NCBI GenBank assembly: GCA_050173015.1 | Contig: JBFXLE010000002.1 | Coordinates: 96,001-160,000 of the forward strand | DNA: 64,000 nucleotides | Reading direction: 5' to 3' | Origin: Calditrichaceae bacterium | GTDB taxonomy: Bacteria; Calditrichota; Calditrichia; Calditrichales; JBFXGD01 | Shown here: positions 3 to 11,396 of the stretch, piece after piece | Numbering within the stretch: the first letter of the stretch is position 1 | Layout: each line of letters opens with the position of its first letter | Program-made: the position numbers and the translations under genes | Notes under the pieces: model-generated | Database searches by the model: none | The model's input: only the letters and a program-made list of their open reading frames with translations | What the model was told of the DNA's origin: nothing

Positions 3-1127
3 ACGGGCCTGGGCAGGGCGCCTCTTAATCCTGAATTGTTGAAAAATTTAGATCAAATCGGCCGTTATACAAACCTTGAGATCCAGTTGGAAAACGGCAG
101 AAGGGGACAGCGAAACGATCATTTATCACGATTACTCAGCATATTAACCGGGGCTGAGGATGGCCTTGCTGTTAATAATAATGCCGCCGCGGTAATGCTT
201 ATGCTCCATAGCCTGGCAAATCGTAAGGAAGTCATTCTCTCGCGCGGCGAAATGATTGAAATTGGCGGCGCTTTCCGTATGCCCGAAGTCATAAAAATGA
301 GCGGTTGTAAACTGCATGAAGTCGGCACTACAAATAAAACACATCTGGATGACTATGAAAAGGCAATTAATGAGCGCACTGCCGCCATATTAATTTGCCA
401 TCCGAGCAATTTTGAAGTGAAGGGATTCTCTCAAAAACCTGATATTAAAGAAATTATTGCAATCGGGAAAAAATATAAAATTCCTGTGATCTATGATCTT
501 GGAAGCGGATCGTTGTTAGATACCACTAAATTTGGATCTGATTCAGAACCTGTTGTTTCGGATATTATCGCCATGGATATCGATATGGTGTCCTTTTCCG
601 GTGATAAACTTCTCGGAGGCCCGCAGTCAGGCATTATTGTCGGCAAGAGACGCTGGATCCGGAAGTGTGCCAAAAATCATTTGCTGAGAGCTCTCAGGCT
701 GGATAAAATTATGATCAGCCTCCTGCAGAAAACATTAATTCAATATTTAGAGGGGGATGCTGTCCTTCAGAAATTGGATGCTCTGCAGTCCCTTACGTTA
801 AAAGCTGAAAAATTAAAAAGTCGCTGTGAAAAAATTACAGAAAAATTACCGGAATCAGTAAAGAAAAGCATAAAAATCATTCCATCCTCAGGAAAAGTCG
901 GGAGCGGGGCTTATCCCTTAATGCCGCTCCCCTCATATGTCCTGCAAATTAAATCTGAACATCTTCGCCCTGATAAACTGGCAAAGAAATTCAGAACCCG
1001 GGCGGTGCCTGTATTTGTGAGGCTTGAAGATGAATCAGTGCTGATTGATCTGAGAACTGTGAGCAGTGATGAAGAGGCGGAATTGAAATCCGCTCTGATT
1101 GATTTGATACCGCGAATAACTGAGTGA
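3..1127 (+). CDS. selA: L-seryl-tRNA(Sec) selenium transferase, 5'-truncated by the window edge
   Basis: Frame is open from nt 3 (TGLGRAPL, matching the SelA HTNLGRAP motif); NNNAAAV, SRGEMIEIGGAFR, EVGTTN and PLP-lysine motif SFSGDKLLGGPQ. Confidence 0.96.
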   Translation, partial: TGLGRAPLNPELLKNLDQIGRYTNLEIQLENGRRGQRNDHLSRLLSILTGAEDGLAVNNNAAAVMLMLHSLANRKEVILSRGEMIEIGGAFRMPEVIKMSGCKLHEVGTTNKTHLDDYEKAINERTAAILICHPSNFEVKGFSQKPDIKEIIAIGKKYKIPVIYDLGSGSLLDTTKFGSDSEPVVSDIIAMDIDMVSFSGDKLLGGPQSGIIVGKRRWIRKCAKNHLLRALRLDKIMISLLQKTLIQYLEGDAVLQKLDALQSLTLKAEKLKSRCEKITEKLPESVKKSIKIIPSSGKVGSGAYPLMPLPSYVLQIKSEHLRPDKLAKKFRTRAVPVFVRLEDESVLIDLRTVSSDEEAELKSALIDLIPRITE

Positions 1128-1577: not shown

Positions 1578-2972
1578 ATGGATTCACCATTTTTCTTGAT
1601 TGGCGTCGTAATTCTGGTACTTGCACTGGGCTTTCTTATATTTTTCATGTTTCGGCAATACCAGAAAGTAGGACCTAATGAAATCTTAATTATTTCAGGC
1701 GGACGTAAAAATGTTGTGACCTCACCCGATGGTATTCAAAATGAAATCGGATTTAAATACAGAATCGGAGGGGGCGCTTTGGTAAATCCGTTCACTCAGC
1801 GGGTAGAAAGACTGCCTATTGAGGTGATCCCTGTCGGTGCCAAAATTCCCGAAGTATTATCCAAAAACGGTATTCCTATCACGGCGGAATTTACCGCGCA
1901 GGTTAAAATTGATACCAATGATTATTCATTATATCTCGCCATTACCAACTTTTTAAGCCGTGGAACCGAGGGCATTCTGGAAGTCTCCACAACCGTTCTT
2001 GAAAGCATGGTGCGTGAAGTTATCGGTACTTTCACTGTGGAAGAGATATTTACAAAACGGAACGAATTCTCAAAAAGAGTCAACGAAGCGCTTCGCGTGG
2101 ATTTTTCGAAAATGGGATTGGTTCTTATGTCGTTTGGTTTAAAAGAAATCAGTGATTCCCAGGGATATATCGAGGCGCTGAGCAAACCGCATATCACGGC
2201 AGCCAAATATCAGGCGGAAGTTGACCGGGCCGAAAAGGACAAAGAAATAACGATAAAATCAGCCCAGGCTAAAAAAGAAGGGGAAATCGCCAGACTTGCC
2301 GCCGAAGCCGAAGTTGCCAAAGCATCATGGAACAATGAAGCAAAAAAGGCTGAATCACAGGTCGATGTGAACCAGAAAAAAGCGCGCGCGGATATGGCTT
2401 ATGAACTTGAGCGATTTAAAATTCAGCAAAATCTCAAAAAAGAAGAATATGGCGTCAAAAAAATTGAAATGGAAGAAGCAACCAAGCTCGAAGAGATGAG
2501 TATCAGGAAAAAACAAAAAGAGCTGGAAGCGAATATTTTAAAACCCGCGGAAGCCAGAAAATTTCAGGTTAAAACGGAAGCAGACGCGGAACGTTACAGG
2601 ATTGAAACCGAATCCAAAGGAAAACTCGAAGTCAGAAAACAGGAAGATGCCGCTGACGCGGACAGGATTAAAATGATCGGTAACGCGGAAGCGGAATCAA
2701 TGGCTAAGAAGTCAAAAGCTTACGAATCATACAATCAGGCGGCCATGTATGAAATGATCATGGAGAAGATGCCGGAGATAGCCAGAGCGGTTTCTGAGCC
2801 CCTGTCAAAGCTGGATAAAATTGTGATGATTCAAAATGACGGCAAGTTAGGAACATCAAAACTGACCGGACAGATAACCGATATCATTGCTCAGTTGCCA
2901 GAGGTGGTCGAGGCGCTTACCGGGGCGGATATAAAAAAAATTATAAAGAAAAAAACATCGGATGAAGGCTAA
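1578..2972 (+). CDS. Flotillin / SPFH (band 7) family membrane protein
   Basis: N-terminal TM helix, SPFH region (PNEILIISG, GGG, LKEISDSQGYIEAL), long A/E/K-rich coiled coil, flotillin C-terminus (MPEIARAVSEPLSKLDKI); RBS AGGAGG. Confidence 0.9.
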   Translation: MDSPFFLIGVVILVLALGFLIFFMFRQYQKVGPNEILIISGGRKNVVTSPDGIQNEIGFKYRIGGGALVNPFTQRVERLPIEVIPVGAKIPEVLSKNGIPITAEFTAQVKIDTNDYSLYLAITNFLSRGTEGILEVSTTVLESMVREVIGTFTVEEIFTKRNEFSKRVNEALRVDFSKMGLVLMSFGLKEISDSQGYIEALSKPHITAAKYQAEVDRAEKDKEITIKSAQAKKEGEIARLAAEAEVAKASWNNEAKKAESQVDVNQKKARADMAYELERFKIQQNLKKEEYGVKKIEMEEATKLEEMSIRKKQKELEANILKPAEARKFQVKTEADAERYRIETESKGKLEVRKQEDAADADRIKMIGNAEAESMAKKSKAYESYNQAAMYEMIMEKMPEIARAVSEPLSKLDKIVMIQNDGKLGTSKLTGQITDIIAQLPEVVEALTGADIKKIIKKKTSDEG

Positions 2973-3076: not shown

Positions 3077-5422
3077 GTGGTCTCCGAACGGATAAAGAAT
3101 ATCAACATCTCGCCTACTATAAAAATTGCGGCAAAAGCGATCGCGATGAAATCAGAGGGAATAGATGTGGTGGATTTCAGTGTCGGCGAACCTGATTTTA
3201 CCACACCGCAGTTTATTAAAGACGCCGCGAAGAAAGCAATTGATCAGGATCTGACGAAATATACCATCAACAGGGGAATTGTCCCCTTGAGGAAGGCGAT
3301 TGCAAAGAAACTAAAGGAAGACAACAACCTTGAATATGATATTTCCGAAATTATTGTATCCAATGGCGCCAAGCAGGCTCTGTATAATGCAATTCTCTCA
3401 GTTGTAAATCCGGGTGATGAAGTCATTGTTCCCGCGCCCTATTGGGTATCATATCCCGAAATGGTGCTGCTCGCTCAGGGAAAGCCGGTCATCATTTCAA
3501 CAAAGGAGGAGAACGGATTCAAAGTGACTCCTGATGAACTTCGTAAGGCCATCTCCGCGAACACAAGGGCAATTATACTCTGCAATCCGTCAAATCCAAC
3601 CGGCGCGGCATATAAACGGAGTGAACTGCAAGCCCTGGCCGAAATAGTTGAAAGTGAAGATATCTTTGTTATTGCTGATGAAATATATGAGAAACTGGTC
3701 TATGATGATTTTAAATTTATCAGTTTCGCGTCACTAAGTAATAAAATCAGACAAAAGACCATATTGATTAATGGGGTCTCAAAAGCGTATGCCATGACAG
3801 GCTGGCGGATTGGATACGCGGCCGGACCTGCTGAACTTATCAATGGCGCGGAAAAAATTCAAAGCCACAGCACTTCGAACGCTTCAACTATTTCGCAATA
3901 CGCGAGCCTGGAAGCGTTAAACGGCCCGCAATATGAAATCTCCCGGATGACCAGTGAATTTCAGAAACGGCGTAATTACATCATGTATAAACTCGGAACA
4001 ATACCCGGTGTGTCCTGCCATAATCCTGAAGGCGCGTTCTATGTGTTTCCGAATATTTCTTCTTTCTTTGGGAAAGAATATAACGGCACTTATATACGTA
4101 ATTCTTACGGACTGGCCTACTATCTTTTAAGAGAAGCAAAAGTTGCGTTAATACCGGGAGCGGCTTTCGGAGCGGATGATTATATCCGTATTTCCTACGC
4201 GACATCGATGAAAAATATTGAAAAAGGCATGGAGCGCGTTACAGAAGCTTTGATGAAGCTGAAAACACCCGCGAGTGTAAAACATACAAAACTTAATAAC
4301 ATGGTCACCAGTCTTAAAAAACAGGTTTCAGTCGACTCAACCCTGAATATTGAAAAACGTGACGCTCTTGTGGCTGAAGCGGAAGCCCAGCTCAAATATG
4401 ATCGATATTTTGAATGGAACGCCAATATAAACGGGGTAATTGTGCAGTTAAGGACGAATAACGGGCATCTTTACGATTTCTGGATGGAGAACTGGTATCC
4501 GGCGCAGCTTGAAGCCGATATCGAGCCACACGGAATTATTTATGCCGTCGAAGGAGCCGTTGGAAGGGAGCCTTACGGATTTTACAATTCGGAAACAAAA
4601 ACGGGGATCCTGTTCAATAGCGATTATTACGGTTCTTTACGGAGCCTGGCATTAGGCCTGGTAACCGATGTTGGAGAACGTTTGTTTGATTTACACGCCC
4701 TGCGCGCCATGTCGGCTGATTATTCCGGGGCAGGATTTGCTGTGATGGGTCCGAAGGGAACGCATAAGACAGAGCTCTTCTACCGGCTTCTGCAGAATGA
4801 AAACATTGCCCTTCATTCAAACGATATAGTATTTGTGCGCTATGGGGGAGGATACGCTGCGGCGGATAATCCCGAACGGAAATTATACATCCCCACAAAT
4901 TCCGCCAGCGTGTTTCAAAGACTCGGTGAATTATTTGATCGCAGTAAATGTGAAAATGTGGTAATGAGCAAAGACGATTGCAAAAATCAAAAATGCCAGG
5001 CATTAGAAGAGTGCTCTCTTGACCGCGGCTATCCGTATTGTTATGAAGCGTCAAAAACCTCCGCCGCAATGCTCGATCCATACTGGATCGGCGGTATGCG
5101 CAAACATGTGAAACGCATTGATATCAGCACGGTATTCATATTAAAAAATGATCCAATCGGAAACGCCATCTCATTAATGGATCCTGATGAAGCGGTGCAG
5201 ATTCTGGAAGCCGGTTTTTCAAGCGGCGCCGTAATGGAAGAGGGACGGGGCAATTTGCCGTTCTATAATCCGCATTTATTATTGAAGACAACAGAGCGGC
5301 TGGAATTACAGAAAAAATCATTCCGCAAATTATTTAAGTCCGCCGCGTGTTATTCAGTAAATACCGGCGCCGGGAACTTGTCGGAAATTCAAAACCGTAT
5401 GATAGAAATTTTGTCAAAATGA
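3077..5422 (+). CDS. Aspartate aminotransferase (class I/II, subgroup Ib-like) fused to a C-terminal degenerate PEPCK-like domain
   Basis: aa 1-~395: GEPDF, SNGAKQAL, CNPSNPTG, DEIY, PLP-lysine SKAYAMTGWRIG, GAFYVF, RISYA. aa ~425-781: PEPCK-like motifs in the same order as the next gene (see findings). GTG start with upstream GGGG RBS. Confidence 0.88.
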   Translation: MVSERIKNINISPTIKIAAKAIAMKSEGIDVVDFSVGEPDFTTPQFIKDAAKKAIDQDLTKYTINRGIVPLRKAIAKKLKEDNNLEYDISEIIVSNGAKQALYNAILSVVNPGDEVIVPAPYWVSYPEMVLLAQGKPVIISTKEENGFKVTPDELRKAISANTRAIILCNPSNPTGAAYKRSELQALAEIVESEDIFVIADEIYEKLVYDDFKFISFASLSNKIRQKTILINGVSKAYAMTGWRIGYAAGPAELINGAEKIQSHSTSNASTISQYASLEALNGPQYEISRMTSEFQKRRNYIMYKLGTIPGVSCHNPEGAFYVFPNISSFFGKEYNGTYIRNSYGLAYYLLREAKVALIPGAAFGADDYIRISYATSMKNIEKGMERVTEALMKLKTPASVKHTKLNNMVTSLKKQVSVDSTLNIEKRDALVAEAEAQLKYDRYFEWNANINGVIVQLRTNNGHLYDFWMENWYPAQLEADIEPHGIIYAVEGAVGREPYGFYNSETKTGILFNSDYYGSLRSLALGLVTDVGERLFDLHALRAMSADYSGAGFAVMGPKGTHKTELFYRLLQNENIALHSNDIVFVRYGGGYAAADNPERKLYIPTNSASVFQRLGELFDRSKCENVVMSKDDCKNQKCQALEECSLDRGYPYCYEASKTSAAMLDPYWIGGMRKHVKRIDISTVFILKNDPIGNAISLMDPDEAVQILEAGFSSGAVMEEGRGNLPFYNPHLLLKTTERLELQKKSFRKLFKSAACYSVNTGAGNLSEIQNRMIEILSK

Positions 5423-5478
5423 AATAGTCACAAAGAAGTATGAATCTGAAATTTTGATCATTTAACGGGAAGTCTGAT

Positions 5479-7320
5479 ATGTCAAAAGATGTATATAACG
5501 AGGCGTATTACAAAAAATTTTATAATGAGCTTATCCCAATTCTCAATGGTAAAAATATTAGAACGGTTGATATGGGCTGGCTCGAACGACAGGCCAGGAG
5601 TTTCGCGAATAAGACAAATTATGGCTCCTATGTGTGGTCATCAAAGATATCAAACCGCCTCGCGGCCAAGACTGTTTACCTCGGGAGTGAAAAGGTTCGT
5701 CTGCCAAAGCCGACCGCAGAACATCTTAAACTGATTGAAAACGCGCCGGAGCAGCTTGAAAAAGTCCTGCATCTCGTAAAAACCCTGCCATTTGTCCACG
5801 TTCGCCGTCAAATGGGCAACAATGATAAGTTTAATCCCGTATGCGATTTTTATGTCAGCACAGTTGATCCAAAGAATGTCCGGCTGGCCTATATGTGGGG
5901 CAGCACCATGTTTGATGTCTCCTCAAGACCCGGACCTAATTTTATAATGATTCATATCCCCGAAGAACACATGCTAAGATCTCAAATCCTGGCGCTTCCG
6001 GAGTATAATCTTAATATCGCCCTTGGGTCTGACTACCTCGGGGAGGATAAAAAAGGCTTTTTGAGACAGGCTATGTGGAGAGCTGATGAGCAGGGGATGC
6101 TTGGATTGCATTCCGGCAGCAAGATTGTAAAAGTACGCGATCCCAGGGAAGGAAGATTAAAAAAGTACGGTGTATTCTTGTTTGGAATGACCGCGACCGG
6201 AAAATCAACATGGTCTTGTCACCAGTTGGGACTTGATCAAGAGAGAGGTGAAACTACTGAAGTCGGTCAGGATGATATAACGTTTCTCGCTCCCGACGGC
6301 TCGGCGCTCGGTTCTGAAAATAATTTCTATGTAAAAACGGATGTCATGCCCGATCAGCAGGAAGCCATGTACAACGCGTTAATAGACAAGTCCGCGCTGA
6401 TCGAAAATGTTATGCTGGATGCTAAGGGTGATCTTGATTTTCTGGATGAGAGCCTATGTGGAAACGGTCGCGCGGTAGTGTTCAGAGAAAAATTACGTGT
6501 AAAAAGGGGCAACAAGCTCATCAACATCAGCGCTCCTACAATCAACCTGCCGACTCTTGATGAAATGGACGGATTAATTTTCGCTTTCATTACTCGCAGA
6601 AATACCATCATGCCGTTTGCTCAGGAGTTAACTCCGGAACAAGGAGTTCTTGCCTATCTTTGGGGTGAATCGACGCACAGTTATGCTTCAAGCCCGGAAA
6701 AGGCGGGTGAATCGGTCAGAATAGTAGGAACCGACCCGTTTATTATCGGATCTCGAGGCAAGAAGGTAAATCGTTTTCATGATATTATCATGATGCTTGT
6801 CGATAAATATCCCGGCAAGATCCGTTTTATGATGTATAACACCGGCGGCATGGGTGAGATTATTGAAGACATCGAAGAGAACGGAAGCATCAGGAAAAAA
6901 ATGGTTAGAAAAACAGACAGGGTACCGCTGAGTCTTATGGCTGCCATTCAACGCGGAGATTTGAGAGGCACCAATACCTATGAAGATGGAATTCTAGGCA
7001 CAAAATCAATTGTGGCAGTAGAAGGAAAGCCGATCCCCGAATATGATATCAGCAATTTTTATACGCCTGAACAGATCGATTATTATATTAAAGATCTTGT
7101 GGATGGGCGAAAAAAATACACGAATCTCATCGCATCCGAGGGATTGAAGCCGGAAATCATCAGGGCCGCGGAGAAGTCATTCCGTATTGATCCTTCTCAG
7201 CGCAAAGAGATGTTCACCGTGCCATTCTCAACCGGTAAAGAAAAAGAACCTGTTGTGCTTATAAAATCGGATGAACCCGTCTCCCGACCAAGGAAACCCG
7301 GAAGCTGGCGGTGGCGTTGA
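5479..7320 (+). CDS. pckA: Phosphoenolpyruvate carboxykinase (ATP-type fold), divergent
   Basis: DYLGEDKK (Y-x-G-E-x-K-K), GMLGLH, P-loop FGMTATGKST, QDD metal motif, ENNFYVKT, LIENV, NGRA, YNTG. Confidence 0.82.
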   Translation: MSKDVYNEAYYKKFYNELIPILNGKNIRTVDMGWLERQARSFANKTNYGSYVWSSKISNRLAAKTVYLGSEKVRLPKPTAEHLKLIENAPEQLEKVLHLVKTLPFVHVRRQMGNNDKFNPVCDFYVSTVDPKNVRLAYMWGSTMFDVSSRPGPNFIMIHIPEEHMLRSQILALPEYNLNIALGSDYLGEDKKGFLRQAMWRADEQGMLGLHSGSKIVKVRDPREGRLKKYGVFLFGMTATGKSTWSCHQLGLDQERGETTEVGQDDITFLAPDGSALGSENNFYVKTDVMPDQQEAMYNALIDKSALIENVMLDAKGDLDFLDESLCGNGRAVVFREKLRVKRGNKLINISAPTINLPTLDEMDGLIFAFITRRNTIMPFAQELTPEQGVLAYLWGESTHSYASSPEKAGESVRIVGTDPFIIGSRGKKVNRFHDIIMMLVDKYPGKIRFMMYNTGGMGEIIEDIEENGSIRKKMVRKTDRVPLSLMAAIQRGDLRGTNTYEDGILGTKSIVAVEGKPIPEYDISNFYTPEQIDYYIKDLVDGRKKYTNLIASEGLKPEIIRAAEKSFRIDPSQRKEMFTVPFSTGKEKEPVVLIKSDEPVSRPRKPGSWRWR

Positions 7321-7898: not shown

Positions 7899-9809
7899 AT
7901 GAATAAACATACAATCATTGGTATGGCCGGACATATCGACCATGGCAAAACCGCTATTATCAGAGCCTTAAGCGGCATCGAAACCGATCGTCTTAAGGAA
8001 GAGATAGAACGCGGGATTACGATCGATATAGGTTTTGCTTATTGGAAGAACAATGTAACTATTATTGATGTACCCGGGCATGAACGTTTTGTAAGAAATA
8101 TGATAGCCGGCGTTAGTACAGTTAATTTGTTTTTGCTGGTCATAGCTGCAGATGACGGTATCATGCCTCAAACGATAGAGCATCTGGAAATTCTAAAATT
8201 TTTTGGGGTGGGTAACGGTGTTGTCGCCTTAAACAAGTCAGATCTGGTGGATGATGATTGGTTGTCATTGGTACGGGAAGATATAGATCAATTTCTTTCC
8301 GTACACGGATTTAATAATGTACCCGTGATCCCGGTATCCGCCGTAAAAGGCGATGGTATCAGTGAACTGGAAATGGTACTCATGCAAAAAATAGAGGGAT
8401 TAAAGCATGTTGAAAATGAGAGACCATTCAGGCTGAATGTGGATCGCAGTTTTTCCGCAAAAGGCTTCGGATCTGTTGTAACCGGTACAATCTTATCATC
8501 GGTGATTAAAACAGGAGATCGCGCTGAAATTCTGCCGGCCTTTAATGAAACGCGCATTAAGGGTATACAAGTCCATCAGCATGAAGTCGTGGAAGCGCAT
8601 TCTGGTCAGCGGGCTGCTGTTAACCTGGCCGGTGTAAACAAAGAAGAATTACCGAGAGGGGTAGTGATAACAGAACCGGGTCTGATAGCCACCGCATCAG
8701 AATTTCTTGCTGTCATTACCACAGTATCAAATCTCAAATTTAAATTAAAGAAACATATGACGGTAAGAGTGCATCTTGGAACCGCTGAATACACGGGAAA
8801 AATATTTTGGTTTGATGACCAGCGTTCACCGGGAGCCAGTGAAATGCTGCATGTCCGGATTAAAGTAAATGAGACGGCTGTCACGGCACCGGGGGATCCT
8901 GTTCTAATAAGGAGCTTCTCTCCGGTCACGACGATTGCAGGTGGTCGGGTACTGGAAATCAATCCACCAAAACTAAGACGTGATCCAAAAGTCTGGGATG
9001 CTTACTTTGGGATTCTAAAAAATGGCGGTCTGAATGACAAAATTAAGCAGATGTTCAGTTTTTCTGGATACAGATCGATCACAAACAAAGAAATTCAGCA
9101 AGCATGGTTCGAAAGACCTGAAAAAATTGATGATATTTTACAGAAGCTCGTAAAACAGAATGCGCTCATTGTTTTCGAGCAAAAAAATATCCGGCATTTT
9201 ATTTCTACAAAGAAATTAGAAGAGGGGCAGTATCAGATAATAGATATGCTCGGAAAAGAATTGTCTGAAAAAAAATATAAAAAAGGGCTGAATTTTAAAG
9301 AAGTTTTTAATCTCGCAAAGAAAATGCAAATGAGTGAAGTATTTCTTGAACGCGTATTGGGAAGAGGCGTAAATACCGAATCCATCTTTTTCAACGGAGA
9401 AGTGTATTTCACGGAAAATATAAAAAAATCGCGGGAAATGGACGTTATCAGGGAAAAAGTTGAAACCCGTTTCAGACGTGACCGGTTTACCGTGCCGGAT
9501 CTTCCGGCATTAGCAAAAGATTTCAATGTTTCCCTGCAAGACGCCAAAACAATCTCAGGTGAGTTGGTTAAAGATGGTATTCTCATCTCAATCAATGGTC
9601 AGTTTTATATACACAAAGATTCACTTGGGGACCTGATTTCTTTTCTAAAGCAACATTTCGAAAAAAACGATGAATTAGAGGTCACCGGCCTGAAAGATTT
9701 TTTAGACAGCAGCCGAAAATATGTAATTCCCCTGATCGAATATTGTGACCGGGCGGGATATACTATTAGGAAAGGAAACAACAGGGTAAAAGGCGTTTTT
9801 CCGGAATAG
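7899..9809 (+). CDS. selB: Selenocysteine-specific translation elongation factor
   Basis: [31 protein letters not shown], GTPase beta-barrel domains, C-terminal winged-helix SECIS-binding motif [11 protein letters not shown]. Confidence 0.96.
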
Positions 9810-10913: not shown

Positions 10914-11396
10914 ATGGATTTAAAAATCGTAAAAATCGATAAACCTGAAGATATGAACTTCATATTAGGCCATTCCCATTTTATAAAAACCGTTGAAGAT
11001 ATTCACGAAGCAGTCATGAACGTTAATCCTTCCATAAAATTCGGTCTGGCGTTTTGTGAAGCTTCTCAGGAGGCGCTTGTACGATTCAGCGGGACGGATG
11101 ATGATTTAATCGAGTTAGCCAAGAAAAACGCGCTTAATTTAAGCGCCGGACACAGTTTTATACTGTTTCTCGGAAATGCTTTTCCGGTAAATGTGCTGAA
11201 TACCATCAAAATGGTGCCGGAAGTAACGAGAATATTTTGCGCGACCGCAAATCCTGTGGAAGTTATCCTGGCTGAAACCGGACAGGGGAGAGCTATTTTA
11301 GGCGTCGTTGACGGCATGAAGACAAAAGGTATTGAACAGGAAAAAGATATCAAAAAAAGAAAAGATTTCCTGCGAATGATCGGATATAAATTTTGA
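10914..11396 (+). CDS. Adenosine-specific kinase family protein (DUF355/COG1839)
   Basis: NFILGHSHFIKTVED, FGLAFCEAS, AGHSF, CATANP, GVVDG, LRMIGYK family signatures. Confidence 0.88.
   Translation: MDLKIVKIDKPEDMNFILGHSHFIKTVEDIHEAVMNVNPSIKFGLAFCEASQEALVRFSGTDDDLIELAKKNALNLSAGHSFILFLGNAFPVNVLNTIKMVPEVTRIFCATANPVEVILAETGQGRAILGVVDGMKTKGIEQEKDIKKRKDFLRMIGYKF

Follow-up and report, generated by a model that had tools for sequence, protein, structure and literature searches.

A degenerate PEPCK-fold domain on an aspartate aminotransferase and its possible tie to a divergent PEPCK clade

The window analysed here, a 64,000-nucleotide stretch of a contig of a Calditrichaceae bacterium, carries an open reading frame that begins as an aspartate aminotransferase (AspAT), runs on for nearly as many residues again, and lies just upstream of a gene for a phosphoenolpyruvate carboxykinase (PEPCK)-like protein (Table 1). 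The locus raises the question of what this second half is, where it comes from and why it should sit on an AspAT. The original prediction was of a complete AspAT of about 395 residues followed by a tail of about 385 residues that resembles the neighbouring PEPCK motif by motif, has lost the catalytic residues and is kept for docking, sensing or regulation. The architecture is as described, with AspAT residues 1-395 followed by 386 more in the same frame, and every motif string quoted is present in the translation.

Table 1. Features of the locus (positions in the window; residues of the fusion protein unless stated otherwise)
Feature	Position	Strand	Basis or remark
FloT-like flotillin gene, 464 aa	1578..2972	+	Pfam Band_7/SPFH, Flot; upstream of fusion
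Fusion ORF, AspAT + linker + dead PEPCK-fold domain	3077..5422	+	781 aa plus stop, GTG start
AspAT domain, residues 1-395, class I/II fold, subgroup Ib-like, apparently intact	3077..4261	+	PF00155, 1j32
Linker, residues 396-424	4262..4348	+	unstructured in model, poorly conserved
Putatively dead PEPCK-fold domain (D domain), residues 425-781	4349..5419	+	AF2, Foldseek, VIA, hhalign
R459, Arg fixed in both dead clades, not in intact relatives	4451..4453	+	column counts
R522-S523, PEPCK Lys-Lys position (K191-K192 of P0003)	4640..4645	+	alignment
R543, catalytic/metal-ligand His position (H211 of P0003)	4703..4705	+	alignment
Degenerate P-loop GPKGTHKT, residues 558-565	4748..4771	+	hhalign with neighbour GMTATGKS
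N582-D583, DD-pair position (D265-D266 of P0003)	4820..4825	+	alignment
Cys cluster C625, C635, C640, C646, C655	4949..5041	+	column counts
A663, Arg of N-x-R position (R331 of P0003)	5063..5065	+	alignment
Divergent ATP-PEPCK-like gene (P0003), 613 aa, catalytic set intact	5479..7320	+	56 nt downstream of fusion
PEPCK C-terminal extension, residues 566-613 of P0003, ending RPRKPGSWRWR	7174..7317	+	length comparison

A genuine fusion with an apparently intact aminotransferase

The fusion is real. The tail is found in 909 protein clusters and in 437 stretches of species-level genomes, with named hosts in Calditrichota, Ignavibacteria, Bacteroidota, Acidobacteriota/Aminicenantes and others, and contigs of two other studies (runs X2, X3) cover positions 3900-5700 across the junction with 7-9 substitutions and no indels, so that the presence beyond this genome which the original prediction had set as a test is borne out. 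Fusion homologues, annotated only 'aminotransferase', can be read through without interruption at 79 of the 80 related loci, measure 740-800 aa in 116 of the 120 listed and remain 55-70% identical across phyla. That the fusion arose from misassembly or misannotation, or is a functionless decaying remnant, is refuted by these clusters, genomes, open frames, independent contigs and cross-phylum identities and has next to no probability. Nothing speaks for it; in one related locus (L009) only 210 codons are open upstream of the tail. The 116 full-length fusions analysed below are the best 116 of 909, i.e. those closest to the window. In the alignment A1, mean column identity is 54%.

The N-terminal half passes the Pfam model PF00155 (E 1.1e-75, residues 30-387, 255.5 bits against a cut-off of 19.7), and its closest solved relative is the AspAT 1j32 (E 5.4e-115). 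The motifs NPSNPTG, DEIYEKL, SKAYAMTGWR and IRISYA align with identical or near-identical motifs of 1j32; they comprise the PLP-lysine motif and the other conserved motifs of the active site. By these matches, the half is apparently an intact class-Ib AspAT. Its scores lie below the NCBIfam cut-offs for aspartate transaminase NF004769 (460.3 bits versus 617) and NF041091 (441.7 versus 550), and the substrate specificity is thus proposed rather than assigned: Asp or, alternatively, Asp/prephenate as in 5wmh and 6f35. In the linker that follows, regular secondary structure is absent before helix 25-38 of the tail model, the first 10-residue block of which has a pLDDT of 67 (AF2), and the columns of A1 are poorly conserved.

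Fold, origin and residue losses of the D domain

The AF2 model of the tail, called here the D domain, is confident (pLDDT 89.9, pTM 0.90), and the Foldseek comparison that had been proposed returns a PEPCK fold (E 8.3e-17 to ATP-PEPCK, TM 0.74 normalised to the query). With VIA-align, the model matches the Trypanosoma cruzi ATP-PEPCK 1ii2 at Z 28.2 (rmsd 3.0, 342 residues) and 9e32 at Z 21.9. The likeness to ATP-PEPCKs (PckA, PF01293; 1ii2 of T. cruzi, 1aq2/1oen of E. coli, 1j3b of Thermus) extends over both halves of the fold, with 342 of 381 residues aligned, Foldseek E values of about 1e-16 to 1e-15 and the same motif order in hhalign. Unlike these enzymes, the D domain is about 160 residues shorter and lacks the C-terminal part, since the alignment reaches no further than residue 444 in the 514-residue chain row of 1ii2; it has an extra Cys-rich insert, and other residues stand in place of the Lys, the His, the P-loop Gly, the first Asp of the pair and the Arg of N-x-R.

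At the sequence level, the tail gives no Pfam match at E <= 1, PF01293 included, scores 17.4 bits (E 0.0014) against the NCBIfam PEPCK subfamily NF006821, the cut-off of which is 369, and reaches a best E of just 0.55 against the neighbouring PEPCK by pairwise BLASTP. The likeness to the neighbour nevertheless exceeds chance: profiles of 35 tail and 26 neighbour sequences align in hhalign with a probability of 87.6% and E 3.5e-6 over 164 columns. Four of the motif pairs originally claimed, GPKGTHKTE/GMTATGKST, HSNDIVFV/GQDDITFL, PERKLYIPTN/SENNFYVKTD and KCENVV/LIENVM, are recovered exactly; the five others are backed indirectly, through alignment with intact relatives.

The HPr kinase/phosphorylase catalytic domain (PF07475; 1jb1, 1ko7, 1knx) resembles the P-loop half (Z 10.9-11.9, ~135 residues) and gives the sole sequence-level PDB matches of the tail profile (E 0.045-0.17, ~60 residues). 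It covers model residues of about 138-381 only, whereas the N-terminal half is PEPCK-like and not HPrK-like; PF07475 and TIGR00679 are unmatched in Pfam and NCBIfam, with scores far under the family thresholds, and an assignment as HPr kinase/phosphorylase was rejected on these grounds. Pfam and NCBIfam have no model for the D domain, and neither these nor the PDB profile comparison places it in a characterised family, an outcome that would have told against the original prediction.

The nearest sequence relatives of the tail (E to 1e-94 with the tail profile) are small stand-alone PEPCK-like P-loop proteins of about 360-570 aa, such as P0245, P0248, P0253 and P0261, annotated 'hypothetical protein' and with only weak HprK_C, PEPCK_ATP or NF006821 matches. 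They share the compact architecture of the D domain, several with the Cys insert too, and differ from it in being unfused to AspAT or PEPCK and in keeping the catalytic set K-H-G-K-D-D-R in 33 of 54 rows. Two dead clades, one fused to AspAT and the other to PEPCK (see below), both nest within this family in the tree. By sequence, the D domain is a member of this unnamed family of small PEPCK-like proteins. An origin as a duplicate of the neighbouring PEPCK gene was rejected, as the domain nests in this separate family.

Against the KHGKDDR of the intact rows, the window reads RRHKNDA. The codons confirm R522, S523, R543, H563, N582-D583 and A663, so that all the substitutions originally claimed are real; one of them, Ser at the Lys213 position, is no degeneration, as 16 of 18 intact relatives have Ser there as well. 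Position 522 (Lys212 equivalent) is R in 115/116 AspAT fusions and in 85/87 PEPCK-fused N-domains and K in 16/18 intact relatives, and position 543 (His232 equivalent), which aligns with the HPrK His in the comparison of the tail profile with the PDB, is R in 116/116 and 86/87 and H in 15/18. In the P-loop, position 563 is never Gly among the 116 fusions (K86/H8/N8/Q7/R6; G in 16/18 intact relatives), and the following K564 is kept in all 116; the PEPCK-fused domains vary at this Lys (K36/R25/I17/V8 among 87). This lineage-specific decay of the P-loop, at the Gly in bacterial and at the Lys in archaeal-type proteins, counts against nucleotide-dependent catalysis. Position 582 (Asp268 equivalent) is mostly N74/T13/Y10/S7/A3 in the 116 fusions and D in 16/18 intact relatives, and position 663 (Arg333 equivalent) is mainly H38/Y26/A24/F11/V4, R in 17/18 intact relatives and H32/Y31/F20 in the 87 PEPCK-fused domains. 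The PEPCK catalytic set therefore fails in the D domain (R-S, R, H-K-T, N-D, T-x-A), with the same losses across the 116 fusions.

A further Arg, R459, is present in 100% of 32 AspAT-fused, 96% of 24 PEPCK-fused and 18% of 33 intact rows, and W447 and Q457 follow the same clade pattern; together with R522 and R543, which occupy former Lys/His positions, this makes three Arg fixed across the two dead clades. Basal AspAT-fused members read RRGKDDR or RRGRDDR, i.e. deep-branching fused members retain the canonical P-loop GK[ST], the DD pair and the Arg, which suggests that the AspAT-fused clade decayed stepwise. Because of the residue losses relative to intact relatives, this stepwise decay and the strong purifying conservation, we infer that the D domain is a pseudo-enzyme, and the prediction of an AspAT with an attached PEPCK-fold domain that has lost its catalytic set stands on fold, comparative residue loss and wide conservation. 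The loop GPxGTxK[TS] is near-invariant in the bacterial fusions (n=116), position 583 is D109/E7, E600 is found in 115/116, and R601 and K602 in 116/116; these positions leave room for residual chemistry.

Within the Cys-rich insert, C625, C635 and C646 are each conserved in 115/116 fusions, with C93/H22 at position 640 and C94/S21 at position 655; the insert is absent from 87/87 PEPCK-fused N-domains. The region is modelled with pLDDT 76-84 (AF2), and the cluster is a probable structural metal site.

The divergent PEPCK, its fusions and the gene neighbourhood

The protein encoded downstream passes PF01293 (E 8.2e-21, 74.7 bits versus a cut-off of 26.5) and stays under the NF006821 cut-off (278.2 bits versus 369). 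Its motifs GEDKK, LH, TATGKST, QDD and NGR align with those of the solved PEPCKs 1ii2 and 1ytm and are invariant in 26 homologues, and the neighbour is a putative PEPCK. The same genome also encodes a canonical PckA (742.9 bits), so that the function of the divergent protein stays putative.

Of 104 matches, 88 are proteins, mostly archaeal, in which the dead domain forms the N-terminal part, ahead of a PEPCK of the neighbour's clade. In all 88, the first 332 or so residues match the window tail (28-37% identity, E to 6e-79), and what follows matches the window PEPCK (37-45% identity). These proteins of about 800-940 aa are annotated only 'phosphoenolpyruvate carboxykinase'; 13 of the 16 with organism names are archaeal, and the archaeal hosts are Hel-, Hod-, Loki- and Freyarchaeota, Bathyarchaeia, Altiarchaeota and Hydrothermarchaeales. 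The PEPCK half of one of them, P0399, passes NF006821 (424.3 bits, cut-off 369). They resemble the window in the diagnostic Arg-Arg pair, the lost N-x-R Arg and the PEPCK clade; they differ in carrying D on PEPCK instead of AspAT and in lacking the Cys insert, the ENV motif and the C-terminal PEPCK extension (0/38). AF2 models the domains of a natural fusion of this kind with confidence (pLDDT 88), with a pTM of just 0.67, a disordered linker and no fixed packing of D on PEPCK.

In bacteria, a homologue of the neighbour lies downstream of AspAT-D in 73 of 80 loci, at a median gap of 55 nt, and in the window the gap between the two genes holds no terminator-like site. Co-occurrence of the fusion with this PEPCK clade, proposed earlier as a check, is thus seen as adjacency, and it is not obligatory either way. 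The PEPCK is lacking in 4 of 77 bacterial loci with any sequence past the tail, and a search with P0003 finds no match anywhere in those four genomes, the completeness of which may be partial; conversely, PEPCKs of the same clade occur without a D domain in the locus in 38 of 80 metagenome loci, 30 of which have at least 1 kb upstream. D and PEPCK, on one polypeptide in 88 proteins and encoded side by side here, conform to the Rosetta-stone pattern with exceptions in both directions, which suggests from sequence a functional link between D and this PEPCK clade.

All 67 bacterial neighbour PEPCKs carry a C-terminal extension of 43-57 residues, ending in W[RH][WSGL][RK] in 53 of them, and none of the 38 fused D-PEPCK and none of the 37 PEPCK-only forms has it. 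This Trp/Arg-rich extension is thus specific to the split arrangement, with D on another polypeptide (67/67 versus 0/75), a correlation confounded with phylogeny, since all split forms are bacterial.

Upstream, the flotillin matches Pfam Band_7/SPFH (E 1e-25) and Flot (E 1.6e-6) and scores 300 bits against the NCBIfam FloT model, under its cut-off of 700. Homologues of 51-97% identity lie on the same strand upstream of AspAT in 75 of 80 genome loci and end 45-267 nt before its start, so the bacterial arrangement is a three-gene unit of FloT-like flotillin (75/80), AspAT-dead domain and PEPCK (73/80). At archaeal-type D-PEPCK and PEPCK-only loci, neither an AspAT (0/80) nor a flotillin (0/80) is nearby.

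Proposed function, alternatives and precedents

The reading best favoured, to which a probability of roughly 55% is given, is that D, itself non-catalytic, assists one divergent clade of ATP-PEPCKs (NCBIfam NF006821 type) as an accessory module, a reading based on the D-PEPCK fusions, the gene linkage and the occurrence of the extension only in split forms. The module would be carried by the PEPCK N-terminus in mostly archaeal proteins and by the AspAT encoded just upstream of PEPCK in bacteria, where it would most likely tether AspAT to PEPCK. Aspartate-oxaloacetate-PEP interconversion would then run as a coupled two-step module in which labile oxaloacetate is handed over, and the former active site (R459, R522, R543 and the GPxGTxK[TS] loop) may be retained as an Arg-lined anion-binding pocket for docking or allosteric control. 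Catalytic inactivity, physical binding, ligand identity and flux direction are what we infer, and the docking, sensing and regulatory roles of the original prediction keep the same standing. The frequent occurrence of the PEPCK clade without D, the four AspAT-D loci without PEPCK and the lack of fixed D-PEPCK packing count against coupling. Deep-branching fused members with a canonical P-loop, DD pair and Arg, the near-invariant residues of the bacterial fusions and the canonical PckA of this genome are further points against the reading, as is the confounding of the extension with phylogeny.

Less probable, and on balance unlikely, is that D acts only as a cis-acting allosteric sensor, binding an oxaloacetate-node metabolite (OAA, PEP, a dicarboxylate or a nucleotide) in the Arg pocket and regulating the enzyme to which it is fused, AspAT in bacteria and PEPCK in archaea, with no AspAT-PEPCK docking. 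D is indeed covalently attached to two different oxaloacetate-handling enzymes, each partner is found without the other, R459, R522 and R543 are fixed in both dead clades, and the non-canonical loop is conserved. A direct analogue is the inactive PTA-like C-terminal domain of type I malic enzymes such as E. coli MaeB, described as dispensable for catalysis and needed for allosteric control, which its deletion abolishes (PMC8100219). Like D in the reading given here, it is an inactive enzyme homologue attached to an enzyme acting at the PEP-pyruvate-oxaloacetate node; unlike D, it has an unrelated fold and partner, and its regulatory role is experimentally shown. Sensing alone, however, leaves unexplained the PEPCK gene that follows in 73/80 loci and the PEPCK extension gained only where D is on the other polypeptide.

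A wider picture, drawn with low confidence, is a flotillin-organised, membrane-proximal metabolon with the dead paralogue as adaptor and possibly OAA/PEP sensor. D on AspAT would pass oxaloacetate on to an ATP-PEPCK of a third type, so far uncharacterised, which would dock by means of its Trp/Arg-rich C-terminus, and in the PEPCKs of Asgard archaea and Bathyarchaeia D would be an ancient 'prozyme'-like partner of the clade.

That flotillin is the real partner, with D and perhaps the Trp/Arg-rich PEPCK C-terminus recruiting AspAT and PEPCK to a flotillin microdomain, is decidedly improbable. The flotillin linkage is at least as tight as that of PEPCK and is kept in three of the four loci without PEPCK, the WRWR-type terminus is confined to the bacterial arrangement, and cationic-aromatic termini are a common membrane-interface motif. 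Yet the archaeal-type loci have no flotillin neighbour, which excludes flotillin binding as the original function of D. Adjacency by itself does not establish interaction, and a titles-level literature search found nothing linking flotillin with AspAT or PEPCK in bacteria.

Just as poorly placed is an active enzyme with altered chemistry, which might, for instance, act on the AspAT product by phosphoryl or carboxyl transfer without a metal, using Arg522/Arg543, K564, D583, E600-R601-K602 and the Cys cluster. The conservation of these residues (K564, R601 and K602 in 116/116, E600 and C625 in 115/116, D109/E7 at 583), the 54% mean column identity and the GK[ST], DD and Arg of basal members would fit it. 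However, the His and Lys of intact relatives (15/18 and 16/18) are gone in 116/116 and 115/116 fusions, and the P-loop Gly, Asp268 and Arg333 positions are held by several non-equivalent residues across lineages, a pattern of relaxed constraint rather than of newly evolved catalysis. Neither the Cys insert nor the ENV motif is found in the sister-like PEPCK-fused clade.

Another precedent is NDUEG2, a complex I subunit of Euglena gracilis (8j9h chain E2), which matches the tail model at Z 21.7 (VIA). It is described as a PEPCK homologue 'unlikely to be functional', with an incomplete C-terminal domain devoid of two ATP sites (PMC10884005), and serves as a structural part of a larger assembly; in this it is comparable with D as read here. 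Unlike D, it is a eukaryotic mitochondrial accessory subunit with neither an aminotransferase fusion nor a linkage to an active PEPCK.

New here are the origin of D in a small PEPCK-like family, the archaeal D-PEPCK fusions and the bacterial three-gene unit. Dead enzyme paralogues are well known as regulators and scaffolds in eukaryotic signalling and, to our knowledge, poorly catalogued in prokaryotic central metabolism. D sits at the oxaloacetate node, attached to one of two enzymes, AspAT or PEPCK, that produce or consume oxaloacetate, and if the docking or sensing model is true, it would represent a genetically hard-wired case in which a labile intermediate is handed over as substrate or its turnover is coupled allosterically. 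It would also draw attention to two uncharacterised groups, the divergent PEPCK clade and the intact family of small PEPCK-like proteins. Metabolic reconstructions of these uncultured lineages should meanwhile treat both the 'aminotransferase' of 781 aa and the 'PEPCK' of roughly 890 aa as two-module proteins.

The fusion gene and the fold of its second half

The fusion gene encodes, from a GTG start codon, a 781-aa product in which the open frame extends 386 residues beyond an aminotransferase half (ORF listing and translation; see table of features). Pfam Aminotran_1_2 covers residues 30-387 (E 1.1e-75), the top NCBIfam models are aspartate transaminases (460 and 442 bits, both under the equivalog cut-offs), and the nearest solved structure is the aspartate aminotransferase (AspAT) 1j32 (E 5.4e-115), followed by aspartate/prephenate aminotransferases. 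Because of these family matches and the motifs NPSNPTG, DEIYEKL, SKAYAMTGWR and IRISYA, which are kept in the alignment with 1j32, the N-terminal half is regarded as a class-Ib enzyme of the AspAT type, complete and apparently functional. Other class-I aminotransferases are present in the same genome, at no more than 36% identity, and the tail occurs there in single copy.

Used as a query, the tail retrieves 909 matches at E <= 0.001 among proteins of 429-1367 aa. Of the best 120 of these, 116 are 740-800 aa long and carry an aminotransferase domain, and tail identity among the matches listed (120 of 909) is 54-96%. The source names of the carriers include Calditrichota, Ignavibacteria, Bacteroidota, Acidobacteriota/Aminicenantes, Caldisericaceae and Zixibacteria; one carrier, P0064, comes from the cultured Caldithrix abyssi. 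A collection with one genome per species has 437 stretches that code for a tail relative, and AspAT and tail share a single open frame in 79 of the 80 loci examined. Contigs from two other studies also cover window positions 3900-5700, including the junction, unbroken, with 7-9 substitutions and no indels; together with the protein and genome matches, they dispose of the artefact that the original prediction had named as a way in which it could fail. At one locus on a long-contig MAG (L009:4806-7125), no more than 210 codons are open in frame ahead of the tail and the best match to AspAT spans residues 3-218 only, which may reflect a truly split gene, or else a frameshift or faulty assembly.

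A Pfam scan of the tail returned no match, and BLASTP found no similarity to the PEPCK encoded next to it (P0003, best E 0.55). The NCBIfam PEPCK subfamily NF006821 is matched marginally (E 0.0014), the neighbour scoring 278 bits on the same model. The AF2 model of the tail, built with 35 homologues (pLDDT 89.9, pTM 0.90), revealed the expected PEPCK fold: all top Foldseek matches are ATP-dependent PEPCKs (E 8.3e-17 to ~1e-14), followed by GTP-PEPCKs. In VIA-align, residues 3-381 of the model superpose on Trypanosoma cruzi PEPCK 1ii2 with Z 28.2 and rmsd 3.0 over 342 residues; the scores are Z 21.9 for GTP-PEPCK, 21.7 for the PEPCK-like Euglena complex-I subunit 8j9h_E2 and 14.6 for PPi-PEPCK. 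The likeness to HPr kinases (Z 10.9-11.9) is confined to the P-loop half. The tail has its fold in common with ATP-PEPCKs, but lies under the sequence thresholds and is without the catalytic residues. Between the tail family and the neighbour PEPCK family, hhalign gives 87.6% probability (E 3.5e-6), and four of the motif pairings originally proposed from the sequence alone were reproduced exactly by profile-profile alignment. The ESM Atlas clusters nearest to the tail are unnamed 'hypothetical' families, with HprK_C in a minority of members.

Features of the window
Feature	Position	Strand	Remarks
selA	3-1127	+	cut by window start
FloT-like flotillin gene	1578-2972	+	directly upstream of fusion gene
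AspAT-tail fusion gene	3077-5422	+	781 aa
Neighbour PEPCK (P0003)	5479-7320	+	613 aa, divergent ATP-PEPCK-like
C-terminal extension of neighbour PEPCK	7174-7317	+	48 residues, ends RPRKPGSWRWR
selB	7899-9809	+	
Adenosine_kin protein	10914-11396	+	160 aa; PF04008, E 2.3e-74

Catalytic sites of the tail

The functional roles of the ATP-PEPCK motif residues are established, and PDB titles record that enzymologists mutate K212, K213, K254, D269, R65 and others. In the neighbour P0003, the motifs GEDKK, LH, TATGKST, QDD and NGR pair with GEMKK, MH, SGTGKTT, DDE and NTR of solved ATP-PEPCKs. For the tail, the 116 AspAT fusions closest to the window were compared with 18 intact stand-alone relatives, small PEPCK-like proteins keeping the catalytic set.

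Residues at catalytic sites in AspAT fusions and intact relatives (E. coli equivalents where numbered)
Site	Fusions (116)	Intact relatives (18)
Lys212	R 115/116	K 16/18
His232	R 116/116	H 15/18
P-loop Gly	K86/H8/N8/Q7/R6, G never	G 16/18
Asp268	N74/T13/Y10/S7/A3...	D 16/18
N-x-Arg	H38/Y26/A24/F11/V4	R 17/18

At the seven catalytic sites, the window tail reads R-R-H-K-N-D-A; of the stand-alone relatives, 33 out of 54 retained rows read K-H-G-K-D-D-R. The substitutions of Lys, His, P-loop Gly, first Asp and N-x-Arg first noticed in the window are the same losses seen across the 116 fusions. A proposed double change of KK to RS held for the Lys to Arg step only, as Ser fills the second position in 16 of 18 intact relatives and is ancestral to the family and no loss. 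The set is RRGKDDR, RRGRDDR, KRKKDDR or similar in nine further fused sequences, either deeper or fragmentary; their His232 equivalent is Arg in eight (His in one) and their Lys212 equivalent Arg in seven. Since such sets exist, the decay in the fusions was stepwise.

The tail is under strong purifying selection. Gained and fixed in the fusions are K602 (116/116), C625 (115/116), Y669 (115/116) and W670 (116/116). In a Cys cluster, C635 and C646 are each kept in 115 of 116, position 640 is Cys in 93 and His in 22, and position 655 is Cys in 94 and Ser in 21; the alternation of Cys and His at position 640 suggests a putative structural metal site. Judged by its residues, the tail is catalytically degenerate, a PEPCK fold without the catalytic set of its family.

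A small PEPCK-like family and the D-PEPCK fusions

A deep profile search with the tail gave 328 matches at E <= 0.001, including stand-alone relatives of 360-570 aa that retain YYGQxKS, IHG, GTGKST, DD and NSR. This unnamed family, without a Pfam or NCBIfam assignment, includes P0244-P0253, P0261, P0287, P0295 and others with intact K-H-G-K-D-D-R, several of them with a 4-Cys insert, and its members may be uncharacterised enzymes. Another stand-alone relative, P0316 (754 aa), contains an intein (Intein_splicing, E 1.5e-16) within the PEPCK-like domain.

The same search returned P0254, a protein of 899 aa in which a tail-like domain (D domain) is fused to a PEPCK. With its N-terminal domain as query, 104 proteins were found, 88 of them such D-PEPCK fusions and 16 AspAT fusions. 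The D-PEPCK proteins are ~800-940 aa long (one of the 88 is a 588-aa fragment), and the 16 sources with an organism name are 13 archaeal and 3 bacterial, the archaeal carriers being Hel-, Hod-, Loki- and Freyarchaeota, Bathyarchaeia, Altiarchaeota and Hydrothermarchaeales. The full-length window tail matches residues 1 to ~332 in all 88 (E to 6e-79, 28-37% identity), and the PEPCK of the window matches the remainder (37-45% identity); the PEPCK half clears NF006821 with 424 bits. The N-domains have Arg at the Lys212 site in 85 of 87 and at the His232 site in 86 of 87, and His, Tyr or Phe at the N-x-Arg site in 83 of 87. Their P-loop decay differs, with Gly retained in 79 of 87 and Lys in just 36, and the Cys insert is absent from the 87 checked.

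In a quick ML tree (SH-aLRT only, midpoint root), the AspAT-fused tails form one clade (support 99) and the PEPCK-fused domains another (100). Both dead clades and the intact P0248 meet at an open node with support 90, and all nest among intact proteins. Both dead clades have W447, Q457, R459, R522 and R543 fixed, residues that no more than 18% of intact relatives share. The tail is thus no copy of the neighbour; it is a dead branch of another family, that of the small PEPCK-like proteins, which is uncharacterised. Tandem duplication of the neighbour PEPCK was rejected as its origin, as intact stand-alone relatives are reached at E 1e-94 and the hhalign probability against the neighbour is only 87.6%. 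Among the best 150 tail-profile matches (domains scanned in 10), none is recognisable as a PEPCK of the neighbour type standing alone. P0273, P0310, P0318, P0326, P0350, P0363 and P0378 form a separate stand-alone clade (SH-aLRT 100), degenerate at nearly all seven sites, which looks like a second, independent dead set within the family.

Gene neighbourhood and proposed role

In 73 of 80 bacterial loci, a P0003 homologue with 61-96% identity lies 15-505 nt downstream (median 55), and the window holds no terminator-like site between the two genes. Of the other seven loci, three end at most 130 nt past the tail, one has 973 nt and three have at least 2.4 kb; P0003 matches nothing in the genomes of the latter four, whose completeness is not established. 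The conservation of an upstream flotillin gene was unexpected: across phyla, 75 of 80 loci have it on the AspAT strand, ending 45-267 nt before the AspAT start. In the other five, flotillin lies at 718 nt (one), upstream room is lacking (three) or there is room without flotillin (one). The genes ndk, selA and selB were rejected as conserved members of the cluster (3/80, 4/80 and 2/80 loci); in the window, selA and selB flank the flotillin/AspAT-D/PEPCK/ndk block, and an Adenosine_kin protein is encoded beyond it. The D-PEPCK profile located 80 metagenome loci, 41 with the fusion, 1 split and 38 with PEPCK alone (at least 1 kb of upstream sequence in 30 of the 38), and neither AspAT nor flotillin is near any of these 80.

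All 67 bacterial neighbour PEPCKs have 43-57 additional C-terminal residues, with a W-R-x-R-type end in 53, and this extension, a motif that may serve in docking or at the membrane interface, is found in 0 of 38 fused D-PEPCK and 0 of 37 PEPCK-only forms. A canonical ATP-PEPCK (PckA; PF01293, 742.9 bits) is encoded on another contig of the genome (C11:8631-10025, locus L081), and the organism therefore has two very different PEPCK-type genes.

The D domain is covalently joined to either of two oxaloacetate-handling enzymes and is tightly linked to one divergent PEPCK clade. The reading that we favour, with a probability of roughly 0.55, is that it serves this clade as a non-catalytic accessory, which in bacteria would couple AspAT to PEPCK (Asp-OAA-PEP). 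The Trp/Arg-rich tail of the PEPCK may take the place of a covalent bond between the two, and anion binding may have persisted in the Arg-lined pocket, together with the conserved GPxGTxK[TS] loop. A complex prediction for tail and neighbour PEPCK scored 0.01 (mark 0.32), which counts neither for nor against docking, and AF2 of a natural D-PEPCK fusion gave confident domains with a disordered linker (pTM 0.67), leaving the packing of D and PEPCK open.

The main rival, in which D is a purely cis-acting allosteric sensor, is unlikely but worth keeping in mind, as there are exceptions both ways (AspAT-D loci without PEPCK and PEPCK loci without D) and a precedent in the PTA domain of malic enzyme. 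Residual or new catalysis by D, strongly conserved as it is, seems improbable beside the loss of the catalytic set, and an adaptor to flotillin or the membrane, which the flotillin upstream of AspAT-D could suggest and which the archaeal-type loci lack, is a similarly slim prospect.

Regulation of a node enzyme by a dead enzyme domain has a precedent in the PTA domain of malic enzyme (PMC8100219), and complex I of Euglena contains a non-functional PEPCK homologue (PMC10884005). Because of these two precedents, the kind of system is already known. Full-text searches of open articles, without supplements and subscription journals, turned up neither this family with its two fusion partners nor any account of AspAT fused to a PEPCK fold, of a dead PEPCK domain in prokaryotes or of the three-gene unit of flotillin, AspAT and PEPCK, and databases label the fusion proteins just 'aminotransferase' or 'PEPCK'. 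While the mechanism stands at the level of inference, the finding itself is solid, widespread and testable.
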